Source of the DNA: an uncultured Pseudomonadales bacterium
GTDB lineage: Bacteria; Patescibacteriota; Microgenomatia; UBA1400; PJMF01
NCBI GenBank assembly: GCA_964583625.1
Contig: CAZOVA010000002.1
Coordinates: 29,452 to 93,451 of the forward strand
DNA: 64,000 nt
Reading direction: 5' to 3'
The translations under genes and the position numbers were made by a program. The notes under the pieces are model-generated. The model worked only from the letters and a program-made list of their open reading frames with translations, did no database searches and was not told where the DNA came from. Shown piece after piece: positions 42,142 to 46,479 of the stretch (the first letter of the stretch is position 1; the number at the start of each line of letters is the position of its first letter).

Positions 42142-42657
42142 ATGAGAGCCATGATTATTATAGGGATTGATCCAGGCTTTGATCGTCTTGGCTGGGCGGT
42201 TGGGCAAAAACAAAAGGGCGAATTAAGAGTTTTGAGTTTTGGAGCTATTCAAACAAATAAAACTCTTCCCTTATTTGAGCGCTATCAGCAAGTAGATAAA
42301 GATTTAACGGCTATTTTGGAAGAATTTCATCCAGACCAGGCAGCAATTGAGTCATTATTCTTTTTTAAAAATCAAAAAACGGTCATTCAAGTAGCAGAGA
42401 GTCGAGGAATTATTCTGAGTGCCTTACTGCACCAATCGGTAACAGTTTTCGAATACACTCCTAGACAAATAAAAGCCGCAGTCACCGGTTATGGCAATGC
42501 TGATAAAAAAGGCATAGACAAAATGGTGAGAAAGCAATTAAAACTACCCCAGGAAATAAAAATTATTGACGACGCCAGTGATGCTTTAGCAGTGCTTTTG
42601 ACGCATAGTTTTGCGGCGGTAAATTTGCAGCAAGGCCGTCAAAATAAGATTAGCTGA
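42142..42657 (+). CDS. ruvC: crossover junction endodeoxyribonuclease RuvC
   Basis: IIIGIDPGFDRLGWAV N-terminus with catalytic Asp, RNase H-like fold length (171 aa). Confidence 0.85.
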   Translation: MRAMIIIGIDPGFDRLGWAVGQKQKGELRVLSFGAIQTNKTLPLFERYQQVDKDLTAILEEFHPDQAAIESLFFFKNQKTVIQVAESRGIILSALLHQSVTVFEYTPRQIKAAVTGYGNADKKGIDKMVRKQLKLPQEIKIIDDASDALAVLLTHSFAAVNLQQGRQNKIS

Positions 42658-43782
42658 TTTTTCATAAGAGAATTTTTGTAGCTGTTTGTCTGCTTTTTGG
42701 AAAATCTTGTTTTTTTGCTTTTTATTAAGACTGATAATTTTTGCCATGATTTTACTAATCTCTTCCACACTAAAAGGATTCACTTTTAGACCACAATCTC
42801 CGATTACCTCTGGCAATGAACTATTATTAGCGACAACGGGCAAAGTTTGGTAAGCAAGCGATTCCAAAGCTGGTAGACCAAAACCCTCTTCTAAACCAAG
42901 GTTGAAATTGGCCAAAGCTTTTTGTAATAAAGCCGCCTTTTGTTTTTCATTGACGAAGCCAGTGAGTATAATTTTATCTTTGATTGGCGAACTATTAACT
43001 TTTTTTTCTACTTCGTCAGTTAGCCAACCCTTTTTTCCGGCTAAGACCAAAAGAATAGTTGGTTTATTTTTAAGTCTTTCTAAATCATTGGTGAATAGCT
43101 CAAAAGCAGTTATTAGGCGAATTAAGTTTTTGCGGGGTTGCAAAGTTCCTAAATAAAGGAAAAAGGGCTGATCAATTTTTAGTTTTTGTAAAATTTCCTT
43201 ATTTTTTTTGTCAGAAAAAAGTTCTTTTTTATAACTTTTACTCAAAGCTGGATAAGCGACAATAACTTCTTCATTAGCTTTCTTATATCTCTCCACAATT
43301 TTTTGTTTACTGTATTTACTGATTGTGGCTACTTGGGTCGCTTTTTTCACGCTATAGCGAGTCCAACTCACCAACTGAAATAAATCGCGGCGTCGAAACT
43401 GTTCGGGATAGGAAAGAAAAGCTAGATCCATGACACTGCTAATATATGGTAAGGGGCAAAAGCGAGGCGCATAGTGTCCAGGGGTATAAAAAACATCATA
43501 CTGTTTTTTGTGTAAATAAAGATGTAAAGGCAAAGCCCACTGAGTCCAGAGCTTAACTGGACCAAAAACGTGATAAGAAAATCCTGGTCTTTCTTTGGGT
43601 AGATCAGCAACTGGAGGTTGAGTGAGTAAAATTGTTAAATGAAAATTTTGTCTCTTTTTTCTGGTTAATTTCTCCAAGTTTTTGATCATTTCATAAGCAT
43701 AAACATTACTCCCTACCCTATTGGCGCAGTTAGCTTCATTGCCATCAATGGCCACTTGTAAAGGATGAAAAAGATCAGGCAT
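42586..43782 (-). CDS. glycosyltransferase family 4 (GT-B)
   Basis: C-terminal EX7E-type motif region EGFGLPALESLAYQTLPVVANNSSLPEV. Confidence 0.8.
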   Translation of the reverse strand: MPDLFHPLQVAIDGNEANCANRVGSNVYAYEMIKNLEKLTRKKRQNFHLTILLTQPPVADLPKERPGFSYHVFGPVKLWTQWALPLHLYLHKKQYDVFYTPGHYAPRFCPLPYISSVMDLAFLSYPEQFRRRDLFQLVSWTRYSVKKATQVATISKYSKQKIVERYKKANEEVIVAYPALSKSYKKELFSDKKNKEILQKLKIDQPFFLYLGTLQPRKNLIRLITAFELFTNDLERLKNKPTILLVLAGKKGWLTDEVEKKVNSSPIKDKIILTGFVNEKQKAALLQKALANFNLGLEEGFGLPALESLAYQTLPVVANNSSLPEVIGDCGLKVNPFSVEEISKIMAKIISLNKKQKNKIFQKADKQLQKFSYEKSANLILTALLQIYRRKTMRQKHC

Positions 43783-44923
43783 ATTCTTCCTTTGCTAAAC
43801 GATAGACAGCTAAAGTTTCTTGAGCTGCTTTTTGCCAAGAGAATTTTTCCAATTGCTCCCTCATTGCTTTTTGCCAATTTTTCTTTTGGCTTTCAGTTTG
43901 TTCGGCCAATTTTTTTAAGCCACTTTCAATTTCGCTGGTGTTTTTAGGATCAATCAAGATGGCTGCTTTGCCCGCTACTTCGGCGGTAGCTGTTCCTCGG
44001 CTAGTGAGAACAGGAGTTTGATAATAGAAGGCCTCCAAAATTGGCAAACCAAAGCCCTCATCAATGGAGGGATAAGTTAAGGCTAGGGCGAAATGATAAA
44101 GTAAAGCCAGATCATAGTCGCTGACTGGTGGCAAAGTGTGAAGATTGGGGTGTTGCCAGTCTGGCTCGTCCCAGCCACTGGCTCCCACCAAAACCAAAGC
44201 TGTTTGCTCCCTTTGTGACCACCAAGCTTGAATTAAACGGTCTAAGTTTTTTCTCGGTTCTCGTGTACCAACAAAAAGAAAATAAGGTTTATTAATAAAG
44301 AACTTTTTCCTAATAACTGAAATGTCTTGATTGTTCAACTTATCTACAGCAATTAAATTGTCTTTTGGTAAAGCCTCATAAACCAAATGAACCATTCTTT
44401 CATCGAAACCAAGAAGATTGATTAAATCATTTTTGGTGCTTTGGGAAGGAGCAATAACTTGAGCCCGTCTTTTCTTTAAGATTTCCCAAGACTCTTGATG
44501 ATGTTTGAGAATCTCTGGATTAGCAATTTGAGGATACTTAGCAATAGCAACGTCGTGGATCGTGGAAACCAAAGGTAAATTTTCGTCTGGCGGTTGTAAA
44601 TAATCCCAGGAATGAAAAACTTCAATCATTGGTAGTTGTTTTTTGAGAGAATTCAAATGTAAATAATGCCATAACCAATGATTGATTTTGGGAGGAATAC
44701 TTTGTACTTTCAAATTTTGTTGAAAAATAGCTTTTTTTTCTGGAGTAAGCTGATTGGCCATTTTTTCTAACTCTGTTTTTAGATTTTTATTTCCCCGTCC
44801 ACTACTAGCATAACCATAAAGCTCCAGGTCTGCTAATTGGCTTAAGGCGACAAAAAGATTGCTCGTGTAGCGACTGACTCCTCTTTTATAAATAATAGCT
44901 GTGAGATCAAAACCAACTTTCAT
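43775..44923 (-). CDS. glycosyltransferase family 4 (GT-B)
   Basis: EGFGLPILEAFYYQTPVLTSRGTATAEV motif. Overlaps the neighbouring GT4 by 8 nt. Confidence 0.8.
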   Translation of the reverse strand: MKVGFDLTAIIYKRGVSRYTSNLFVALSQLADLELYGYASSGRGNKNLKTELEKMANQLTPEKKAIFQQNLKVQSIPPKINHWLWHYLHLNSLKKQLPMIEVFHSWDYLQPPDENLPLVSTIHDVAIAKYPQIANPEILKHHQESWEILKKRRAQVIAPSQSTKNDLINLLGFDERMVHLVYEALPKDNLIAVDKLNNQDISVIRKKFFINKPYFLFVGTREPRKNLDRLIQAWWSQREQTALVLVGASGWDEPDWQHPNLHTLPPVSDYDLALLYHFALALTYPSIDEGFGLPILEAFYYQTPVLTSRGTATAEVAGKAAILIDPKNTSEIESGLKKLAEQTESQKKNWQKAMREQLEKFSWQKAAQETLAVYRLAKEEYA

Positions 44924-46479
44924 TTTTCTAAACCAATCTCGGAATAATGACTTTCCTCTAGCTGATAAAGACGAATAAAACCTAAGTTCGGGTAATCATA
45001 AACCTTTTTTTCCTGATAATTGTGTTCAATTAAATAATTAATTAATAGATTTTGTGAGTCGGTCAAGGAGCGTAAATAGTCAAAAACAATAATGGACTGA
45101 TAATTATTGATAGGACTAAGGACAGATCTTAAATCAGGGATAGTGCTAGTATTATAAGTACCAGTACTCAAAGTAGGAAAAGGTCTAGCTCTTTGTTTTT
45201 CATACCAAAGCCAGGGAGAAAAAGGAGCTTGATAAGTAAAAACAGCCAATGTTTTTTCTGTTGACAGGTCTTGATGGAGAGAGTCAAGAGCGTGGCGCCA
45301 ATTTTCTCTCTGCAGTCGGGGATCTTGATAATAACTTAAGGTTGAAAAGATATTGATGGCGAGAATAAAAATAATTAGTAGCCAGTGACTATTTTTAACC
45401 AGTTTCCAATCTCGCCAATCGCCTAAAATCAGCCATGACAAAAAAAGGTAGAAAATTGGCAAAAGATAAATAACTTTTTTTGGTTGGATAATAGGAATGA
45501 AAAAAGAAACCAGCCAAGCAAGAATAAACGGTAAAAATAAAGCACAAGCAAAAAGTACTAGCTTCGGTTGGTTTTTGAGCCAAAAGCTTTTTTTCTTTTG
45601 TTTTAAAATTAAGCCCAGTAAAAGCAAAAAGGCTAAAGTGGGCCAGATATAAATCAGCTCTAAGTCGACTATCCCAAAAAGAAATTTTCCTAAGGTAAGA
45701 ACTGGCGCCTTCCAAGTAGAGAAACCCACCACCTCTTCCCAACCAGGAAAAATTTTTCTTAGAGTTTGACCAGCTTGGAGTTGAGCGAGAAAACTAGATA
45801 GCCAAGGTAAAAAGGCAATGAAAGGAATAAAAAGACTATAAATTGTTTTGGACCAATCTTTTCTTAAAATCAGAAAAATAATCTGACTCGCTAAAACAAA
45901 AGGATAAAGGTAAGAGGAAAAAAGACCTCCTAAACTAAAAGCTAAAAAGATAAAAAAATCGCGAGAAATAGGAAAAAAATTGAAGAAATGATTGATTTTA
46001 TTTTGAGGAGAAAGTTGATAACTATCTCGCCCCACTTTGCTAGCTTCTAAAAGAAAGAACCAAGAGAAAATTGCCCAAAAAGCCGAAAGTGAATAAGGGC
46101 GTAATTCTTGGGAAAAGAAAATATGAAAAGAACTAGTCGCTAATAATAGAGCTGCTAGTAAACCCACCTTTTTACTCACTAATTTTTTTCCTAATAAGTA
46201 TGTTCCCCAAATAGTCAGTAATCCTGGGATTAAAGCGCCCACTGTTCTTAACCACCATTCTTGTCTATTGAAAGCTAGAGCTTGAAAAGTGAGTAGATGC
46301 AGTAGCGGTGGTTGAAAATCATCGCTAATTTCCAATTGTTGGGACCAGGGGCGATCGGCTTCCAAAGCTTGCGCCGCCTCATCAAGCCAGAAAGAGCCAT
46401 TGAGATTGGGTAGACGCAAAATGAGAGCTAAATAAAGAATTAAGATTAATAGCAAATTTTTTTGCCACCAGTTTTTCAT
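44920..46479 (-). CDS. GT-C fold membrane glycosyltransferase (ArnT/PMT, GT39/83-like)
   Basis: 12-13 TM helices. N-terminal MKNWWQKNLLLILILYLALILRLPNLNGSFWLDEA with the DE motif in the first periplasmic loop, typical of PMT_2/ArnT-type enzymes. Confidence 0.65.
   Translation of the reverse strand: MKNWWQKNLLLILILYLALILRLPNLNGSFWLDEAAQALEADRPWSQQLEISDDFQPPLLHLLTFQALAFNRQEWWLRTVGALIPGLLTIWGTYLLGKKLVSKKVGLLAALLLATSSFHIFFSQELRPYSLSAFWAIFSWFFLLEASKVGRDSYQLSPQNKINHFFNFFPISRDFFIFLAFSLGGLFSSYLYPFVLASQIIFLILRKDWSKTIYSLFIPFIAFLPWLSSFLAQLQAGQTLRKIFPGWEEVVGFSTWKAPVLTLGKFLFGIVDLELIYIWPTLAFLLLLGLILKQKKKSFWLKNQPKLVLFACALFLPFILAWLVSFFIPIIQPKKVIYLLPIFYLFLSWLILGDWRDWKLVKNSHWLLIIFILAINIFSTLSYYQDPRLQRENWRHALDSLHQDLSTEKTLAVFTYQAPFSPWLWYEKQRARPFPTLSTGTYNTSTIPDLRSVLSPINNYQSIIVFDYLRSLTDSQNLLINYLIEHNYQEKKVYDYPNLGFIRLYQLEESHYSEIGLEK

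Follow-up and report, generated by a model that had tools for sequence, protein, structure and literature searches.

A conserved GT-C/GT4 glycosyltransferase triad and a separate pilin-adjacent glycosyltransferase cassette in a Microgenomates-type bacterium

The 64,000-nt stretch of DNA analysed here (contig CAZOVA010000002.1 of assembly GCA_964583625.1; hereafter the window; GC content approximately 37%) comes from a member of the Patescibacteria, or candidate phyla radiation (CPR), and encodes two separate glycosylation systems. The first is a triad of genes for a 519-residue membrane glycosyltransferase of the GT-C fold and two GT4 enzymes (GT4_A and GT4_B), which most likely synthesises a core cell-envelope glycoconjugate. 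The second lies beside the major type IV pilin gene pilA and comprises a GT-C with C-terminal tetratricopeptide repeats (TPR-GT-C) and a GT2 enzyme, which together are candidates for pilin glycosylation. A probability of about 0.6 is attached to this overall picture. A sequence-only reading of the same DNA had gathered all of these genes, with a Wzy_C-family protein, into glycosylation neighbourhoods around the pilus loci. The open reading frames (ORFs) that it named are all present where it had placed them and its domain assignments (GT-C, two GT4, TPR-bearing GT-C, GT2 and Wzy_C) hold; its pilin-glycosylation interpretation suits the TPR-GT-C/GT2 pair, not the triad that it had flagged.

As a group, CPR bacteria are found attached to other microbes, and very little is known of the chemistry of their surfaces. 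Across Microgenomates, a four-gene module of UDP-xylose synthase, GT-C and two GT4s marks an uncharacterised GT-C family of approximately 770 clusters, and a cassette that is either present or absent beside a pilin gene, co-varying with Ser/Thr-rich loops, could diversify pilus surfaces, with possible consequences for host recognition and phage evasion. Both systems extend known glycosylation logic to an unstudied lineage, and current ideas are not overturned. The literature consulted yielded no described CPR GT-C/GT4 operon, CPR xylose glycan or CPR pilin glycosyltransferase, and pilin glycosylation in CPR has so far been predicted only (10.1101/2024.11.25.624915). The homologues of the proteins examined all come from Patescibacteria/CPR assemblies, labelled mostly Pacebacteria, Woesebacteria or Microgenomates.

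The triad and its conserved neighbourhood

The gene order, folds, motifs and distribution described for the triad are direct observations. GT-C, GT4_A and GT4_B form a single translationally coupled operon on the minus strand, since the start of GT4_A overlaps the stop of the GT-C gene (ATGA) and GT4_A and GT4_B overlap by 8 nt (coordinates of all features are collected in Table 1). An extended -10-like box immediately upstream of the GT-C gene, which was not listed by a generic promoter scan because it has no -35 match, probably serves as promoter for the triad; its spacing implies that the triad mRNA would be near-leaderless. Promoter and terminator scans across the triad gave counts no higher than in shuffled sequence. 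Both GT4 proteins score above the Glycos_transf_1 cut-off of 26.4 bits and carry an E-x7-E type motif, aligned as EGFGLPILE and EGFGLPALE (common form EGFGLPxLE). They are paralogues (31% identity, E 5e-28). All relatives have separate orthologue series for the two (45-48% identity), and their duplication is therefore ancient, older than the radiation. By sequence comparison, GT4_A and GT4_B, and not the two GT-Cs of the window, are the true paralogue pair of the region.

Conservation of the triad was assessed in 80 species-level loci from Microgenomates-type genomes, containing GT-C relatives at 36-65% identity, in which neighbouring genes were scored by BLAST. A GT4_A orthologue lies 3' of the GT-C gene on the same strand at 73 of 75 loci, and a GT4_B orthologue stands third in order at 66 of 67. 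Downstream of GT4_B follows ruvC (61 of 63 loci, co-directional in 60), usually with ruvA and ruvB. UDP-xylose synthase orthologues (50-62% identity) are found no more than 4.6 kb upstream of the GT-C gene at 69 of the 80 loci, or near the triad at 70 if one downstream copy (L065) is included; 43 of them are directly upstream and divergent. A pilB, pilT, pilC, pilD or pilin gene, by comparison, occurs within the flank at only 1 of 67 loci. This locus, L010, is with L001 the closest relative of the window (63-65% identity). In these two and in the window the triad lies approximately 4 kb from pilB. Three genes stand between the triad and the pilus operon, namely dus, an ORF of 612 aa and a holB-like gene.

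Because this neighbourhood is conserved across relatives, the triad is probably an old, vertically inherited core envelope-glycan module of Microgenomates-type CPR, and we read its closeness to the pilus operon as the result of a rearrangement that is limited to the nearest relatives and is devoid of functional meaning. The framing of the region 42586-46479 as pilus-associated is thus not borne out: synteny ties the triad to ruvC and the UDP-xylose synthase gene, and the Wzy_C gene to pheT, and neither to pilus genes.

Clustering of the flanking genes extended this neighbourhood. After ruvCAB, relatives encode a WcaF-like Hexapep acetyltransferase (58 loci), a GT2 (57 loci), a Wzy_C-like protein (63 loci) and a second PMT-like GT-C (30 loci), and a Wzx-like Polysacc_synt protein is encoded upstream of the triad at 29 loci. 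In the window's sub-lineage this conserved block has been broken up, by inversion of ruvC and relocation of the UDP-xylose synthase gene. The latter lies 25 kb from the triad in the window, behind the genes for the Wzy_C protein, a 165-aa ORF and a VirD4-like ATPase, an arrangement also found in L090. The inverted ruvC, now on the plus strand, overlaps the 3' end of the minus-strand GT4_B gene convergently by 72 nt (42586-42657).

Two observations on this region may be added. In most Microgenomates, ruvC, ruvA and ruvB are co-directional inside a surface-glycan block (GT-C, two GT4, ruv, acetyltransferase, GT2, Wzy_C-like), as seen in L003/L004 (6803-9955 and neighbouring genes) and in many of the loci L010-L089. 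L003 has in addition, upstream, NeuB-type sugar genes and a gene for a Wzy_C protein of 1050 aa. In L001, ruvC and GT4_B abut without overlap and both are approximately 10 codons shorter.

The 519-residue GT-C and the product of the triad

The 519-residue protein has approximately 11 transmembrane helices and a conserved C-terminal alpha/beta domain, and its confident AlphaFold model (pLDDT 92.7) shows the multi-span GT-C fold. Its Pfam PMT_2 score of 26.7 bits is just at the threshold (cut-off 26.1), and no match to Pfam PMT (PF02366) or PMT_4TMC, the domains of GT39 protein O-mannosyltransferases (PMTs), was found at E<=1e-3. The family is coherent, comprising 769 clusters at E<=1e-30. In the GT-C superfamily, the catalytic DE/DxD motif occupies the first outer loop and is essential in PMTs (PMC12331936; also PMC7801869), and ArnT likewise has a DE motif (PMC7801869). 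An acidic motif is found in the first extracytoplasmic loop of both GT-Cs of the window, as D33-E34 in the 519-residue protein and D38-D39 in TPR-GT-C; D33-E34 is invariant in 48 homologues and opens the first outer-loop helix, which is the place of the catalytic motif. A second, near-invariant motif, P-W-x-W-Y-(D/E) at residues 422-427, is situated in the C-terminal soluble domain approximately 35 residues past the last transmembrane helix and resembles the WWDYG of STT3, AglB and PglB.

We infer the donor and the acceptor of the triad, and the service of all three enzymes to one product. The two GT4s would be cytoplasmic and would extend a lipid-linked intermediate with sugars taken from nucleotide donors, UDP-xylose probably among them. 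On the outer side of the membrane, the GT-C would then use Asp33-Glu34 in its first outer loop and a donor linked to polyprenyl-phosphate, and its step would fall on the same envelope glycoconjugate as the GT4 steps. The acceptor may be a polyprenyl-diphosphate-linked polymer, for which the Wzx- and Wzy-like neighbours seen in relatives speak, or a glycolipid or lipoglycan resembling phosphatidylinositol mannosides (PIMs) and lipomannan, or proteins, as with PMTs. In three-component systems such as GtrB/GtrA/GtrC, ArnC/ArnEF/ArnT and CsbB/GtcA/YfhO, a GT2 charges polyprenyl-phosphate and a GT-C transfers the sugar outside the membrane. The same GT2 and GT-C logic is seen in the pilin-adjacent cassette and plausibly applies to the 519-residue enzyme, with the differences that a flippase gene of GtrA or ArnEF type was detected beside neither GT-C and that the triad couples its GT-C with two cytoplasmic GT4s, where the three-component systems pair theirs with a GT2.

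Several results weigh against a core envelope-glycan module. The functionally unrelated ruvC is kept beside the triad as tightly as are the GT4s, so that in genomes as streamlined as these a conserved order proves little about a shared pathway. The case for one is made because all four module genes encode glycan enzymes and because translation is coupled. Foldseek ranked STT3, ALG12, AglB, ArnT and Pmt4 highest against the model of the 519-residue protein, at TM-scores of approximately 0.5 and with no family standing out, so that the fold search is unable to separate PMT-, ArnT-, ALG- and STT3-like chemistry. Neither the protein nor its profile matched any sequence in the PDB, and no characterised member of the family was found in the literature. 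Neither a priming phosphoglycosyltransferase nor a flippase was found in the window. More generally, NCBIfam gave no assignment above cut-off for any window glycosyltransferase examined. ArnT (GT83) membership is not indicated for the 519-residue protein, which has no NCBIfam ArnT match and no ArnA, ArnB or ArnC context. An Arn-like pathway for the conserved neighbours was likewise rejected: the short-chain dehydrogenase/reductase (SDR) is UXS1-like (266 bits) and not ArnA-like (61 bits), the relatives' GT2 does not resemble ArnC, and the aminotransferase, which occurs at only 7 loci, is WecE-like.

The sequence-only reading had proposed that the triad, the TPR-GT-C/GT2 pair and the Wzy_C protein serve one lipid-linked pathway for pilin O-glycosylation. 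The genes are all glycan-related, the window holds two pilus loci and the triad is close to pilB in the window, L001 and L010, all of which speak for such a pathway. It is nevertheless very improbable and largely refuted, as far as synteny can tell: pilus genes are near the triad at a single species-level locus, three genes intervene before the pilus operon, and the Wzy_C gene is linked with pheT, and among distant relatives also with a class A penicillin-binding protein (PBP) gene, but never with pilins, and neither a PglL_A nor a Wzy_C_2 domain was detected in its product. Alternatively, the product could be a lipoglycan or glycolipid, the GT4s building a diglycosyl-lipid anchor on the inner leaflet and the GT-C extending it outside from polyprenyl-phosphate sugars. 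Comparable GT4 anchor pairs are PimA/PimB' and MgtA in the Corynebacterineae and LafA/LafB and BgsB/BgsA in the Firmicutes, and PimE and MptB are GT-C extenders; in the PIM/lipomannan pathway, as would be the case for the triad, cytoplasmic GT4 steps precede polyprenol-dependent GT-C steps on one envelope glycoconjugate. Tandem GT4s with a GT-C follow the assembly logic of PIMs and lipomannan (PMC12041525, PMC2440535); CPR cells are monoderm and without lipopolysaccharide (LPS); and GT4_A and GT4_B have weak NCBIfam matches to MshA (50 bits), GlcNAc-phosphatidylglycerol synthase (39 bits) and IagA/BgsA (19 bits). These matches are all far under the curated family cut-offs, however, and the Wzx-like and Wzy_C-like neighbours in relatives favour a polyprenyl-diphosphate-linked glycan. 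PimE is a far weaker structural match than PMT, ALG12 or STT3, there is no orthology between the two sets of enzymes, the mycobacterial genes do not form one operon and they have no counterpart of the UDP-xylose synthase neighbour. A lipoglycan or glycolipid product is possible, if on the unlikely side.

General protein O-glycosylation, in which a PMT-like 519-residue GT-C would move a single sugar from polyprenyl-phosphate onto Ser/Thr residues in numerous secreted proteins (including those of the S-layer and pilins) and the GT4s would be operon passengers like ruvC, is unlikely. The PMT_2 match barely reaches its threshold, the GT39-type domains were not matched and the DE motif, shared with ArnT, does not discriminate. 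Identity with GT39 PMTs (yeast Pmt1/2/4, Mycobacterium tuberculosis PMT) is no higher than 13%, the C-terminal alpha/beta domain is different, and these enzymes are no better structural matches than STT3, ALG12 and ArnT. A multi-step product is favoured instead by the translational coupling of the GT4s and by the UDP-xylose synthase gene found near almost every triad. En-bloc transfer, by which the module would be a general protein glycosylation system throughout the lineage, with the GT4s making a short xylose-containing oligosaccharide on polyprenyl and an STT3-like GT-C transferring it to envelope proteins, is decidedly improbable. Bearing on it are the position of W-x-W-Y-D, which sits where STT3 has WWDYG, and the structural matches to STT3 and AglB, which are at least as good as those to PMT and ArnT; if true, it would be to CPR what AglB glycosylation is to archaea or PglB glycosylation to Campylobacter.

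The pilin-adjacent cassette

TPR-GT-C and its GT2 partner are, by comparison of related loci, an accessory cassette situated between pilA and hisS. Three lineages were compared. In the window lineage the order is pilin, TPR-GT-C, GT2, hisS, and the pilin has two Ser/Thr/Gly-rich insertions. The P0122 lineage (L007-L009) has the same arrangement, with identities to the window of 80% for GT2, 77% for HisRS, 63% for the pilin and 49% for TPR-GT-C, the last thus diverging faster than the other three. In the L010 lineage the cassette is absent, pilA abuts hisS and the pilin is without the two insertions of approximately 10 residues each. The pilin insertions therefore co-occur with the cassette (n=3 lineages). 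The Ser/Thr/Gly-rich stretches of the window pilin are located at about residues 66-100 and 136-170, and the protein is the most Ser/Thr-rich of the window ORFs of at least 150 aa (19.2%, against a median of 11.5%). The terminator that had been placed between pilA and TPR-GT-C is indeed present as a hairpin with a T-run, and is the only one that stands out in terminator scans.

TPR-GT-C carries the motifs FDD38-39, YRP73-75, R155xD157 and K197E198, and D38-D39 is nearly invariant in 26 sequences of its family. The structure model consists of a GT-C core and a TPR domain, and a PDB profile search returned matches to TPR proteins only. The same architecture of an N-terminal GT-C and C-terminal TPRs is found in eukaryotic TMTC1-4 and in bacterial PMT_2+TPR relatives. 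The conserved FDD, FYRP, WIPARGD and KE(T) of the TPR-GT-C family correspond to TMTC motifs M1 (DD), M2 ((S)YRP), M3 (RxD) and M4 (KE(T)), which are present and invariant in the family (motif definitions in PMC7801869). Against these likenesses, M5-M7 are only approximate (HR..LP versus ERxxY), no DUF1736 Pfam match was found, and the acceptor would be a pilin instead of a cadherin.

A likeness that extends to genomic setting is offered by Pseudomonas aeruginosa TfpW, a GT-C with 11 transmembrane helices, a DDx motif, a C-terminal TPR domain and a gene adjoining pilA (10.1101/2020.04.19.049825). TfpW, the D-arabinofuranosyltransferase of group IV pilins, and TPR-GT-C, likened to it by description, share a cytoplasmic N-terminus, approximately 11 transmembrane helices, DDx in the first outer loop and C-terminal TPRs; each is encoded beside the gene of the major pilin and, as an accessory gene, occurs in some lineages only. 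They differ in orientation, the TPR-GT-C gene being convergent with pilA and tfpW co-directional and downstream of its pilin gene, and in host, that of TPR-GT-C being a monoderm CPR bacterium. They also differ in partner, and so in sugar: TfpW is served by the DprE1/DprE2 arabinose pathway and TPR-GT-C by a synthase of polyprenyl-phosphate-hexose type. The assignment of the partner as a GT2 stands, and its top three NCBIfam matches (PpgS, dolichyl-phosphate (Dol-P)-hexose transferase and AglJ) and its only PDB match (Dol-P-Man synthase 5mlz) are all polyprenyl-phosphate-sugar synthases, with every NCBIfam score under its curated cut-off (PpgS 64.6 bits versus 370). It is a probable polyprenyl-phosphate-hexose or N-acetylhexosamine (HexNAc) synthase that would supply TPR-GT-C.

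Taken by analogy with TfpW and the TMTCs, the cassette most likely O-glycosylates the Ser/Thr-rich loops of the adjacent pilin: the GT2 would charge polyprenyl-phosphate with hexose or HexNAc, and TPR-GT-C would transfer the sugar, on the outer side of the membrane, to Ser/Thr residues of the pilin. The proposal of lipid-linked pilin O-glycosylation is thus reasonable for this pair, on the conserved trio with pilA, the motifs and the TfpW-type architecture, and is not supported for the triad and the Wzy_C protein. Weighing against the cassette's role in pilin glycosylation are the comparison of three lineages only, the pilin-free contexts of TPR-GT-C homologues at approximately 30% identity (two of three examined being clearly Bacteroidota) and the lack of a flippase gene adjacent to the cassette. 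Beyond the two CPR lineages, TPR-GT-C has its closest homologues among proteins of Bacteroidota, and a metagenome scan for further lineages with the cassette gave no confirmed relative.

The MKNWWQ start common to the two GT-Cs, which had been taken as a sign of near-identical N-termini, paralogy and recent duplication, is real, and BLASTP shows no similarity past this hexapeptide. Profile-profile comparison of the two families (hhalign) gave a probability of 92.8% (E 4e-7) at 17% identity over 218 columns of the membrane core. The N-terminus of the 519-residue family follows a loose M[KR]xW[WL][QR] pattern, with MKKWWQ and MTNWWR in relatives, and the nearest TPR-GT-C orthologue begins MSTLKQ. 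At the DNA level the first six codons are identical at 16 of 18 nt, and likeness is limited to these codons and a generic TGCTATAAT box. Recent duplication was rejected on the BLASTP, hhalign and orthologue results, and the two proteins are best regarded as remote homologues from distant GT-C families. The extended -10 box 5' of the two ATGs is identical, at a distance of 6 nt for the 519-residue GT-C (46486-46494, minus strand) and 9 nt for TPR-GT-C (58029-58037, minus strand). Boxes so near the ATG suggest leaderless or near-leaderless transcripts, and the shared box may partly account for the shared first codons.

The Wzy_C protein and other features of the window

The assignment of the 404-aa membrane protein to the Wzy_C family, which includes WaaL, Wzy and PglL/PilO/TfpO, is confirmed by its score (Table 1). 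Its locus and its partners, pheT and class A PBP, are different from those of the known members. The start of the gene shares 25 nt with the 3' end of pheT, and the order pheS-pheT-Wzy_C is kept in relatives at 41%, 36% and 31% identity (L090-L093). What comes next is either the window's own succession of 165-aa ORF, VirD4-like ATPase and UDP-xylose synthase or a class A PBP. PglL_A and Wzy_C_2 are accessory domains that mark the PglL/PilO/TfpO family. Neither was detected in this protein, in which Wzy_C is the only domain, and no pilin gene stands beside it in any relative examined. A part in pilin glycosylation is therefore not supported, the gene being tied to pheT in every relative examined. 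The profile of the family has a sole and weak match, to WaaL 7tpg (E 0.0046), aligned with the Arg/His-containing loop. The surroundings of the gene were inspected for an LPS or teichoic-acid locus, with none found, and the host is a CPR bacterium. By its conserved context, the protein appears to be the product of a core gene without a pilus link. In distant relatives, the class A PBP gene is convergent with that of Wzy_C, which hints at a cell-wall-linked role.

Table 1. Coordinates of the features discussed, by position in the window
Feature	Coordinates	Strand	Remarks
Wzy_C-family membrane protein, 404 aa	15571-16785	+	Wzy_C 45.4 bits (cut-off 31.7)
UDP-glucuronate decarboxylase / UDP-xylose synthase (SDR)	19653-20645	+	Human UXS1 E 4e-78, 266 bits
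pilM locus	25308-28495		
ruvC	42142-42657	+	Pfam RuvC 141 bits; syntenic marker, outside triad function
GT4_B, 398 aa	42586-43782	-	Glycos_transf_1 83.1 bits
GT4_A, cytoplasmic retaining GT-B, 382 aa	43775-44923	-	Glycos_transf_1 73.4 bits, Glyco_transf_4 33.3 bits
GT-C membrane glycosyltransferase, 519 aa, first triad gene	44920-46479	-	PMT_2 match
Extended -10-like box TGCTATAAT (TGnTATAAT)	46486-46494	-	Consensus match only; 6 nt 5' of GT-C ATG
Pilus operon: pilB, pilT, pilC, pilin-like gene, pilD, pilA	50195-56252		
Major type IV pilin pilA, 177 aa	55719-56252	+	N_methyl 31 bits; proposed acceptor
Terminator-like hairpin with T-run, between convergent pilA and TPR-GT-C	56275-56305	.	14-bp stem, 6 GC pairs
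TPR-bearing GT-C, 570 aa, candidate pilin O-glycosyltransferase	56307-58019	-	PMT_2 and TPR repeats
GT2, 246 aa, divergent from TPR-GT-C, overlaps hisS start	58081-58821	+	Glycos_transf_2 69.4 bits

Pilus genes are interspersed among housekeeping genes in the window, and several further features were recorded. The VirD4/TrwB-like ATPase (783 aa, 17305-19656, plus strand) has DUF87 and TraG-D_C domains, with DUF8128 in the L090 orthologue, and is probably the coupling protein of a Patescibacteria type IV secretion system (system described in PMC12102498). A tyrosine recombinase of the phage-integrase family (5302-6249, plus strand) adjoins tRNA-Ala(GGC) (6428-6502, minus strand) and is flanked by an ORF-poor stretch of approximately 1.8 kb (3530-5300), which together may mark the border of an integrated element. 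An N6/N4 DNA methylase (335 aa) followed by a 246-aa ORF (34678-36429, minus strand), beside two tRNA-Val genes (36538-36755), is a possible restriction-modification pair. The 612-aa ORF (47507-49345, minus strand), which is kept between the holB-like gene and dus in close relatives, has no Pfam or NCBIfam match, and its L001 orthologue has a weak match to Peptidase_C39_2.

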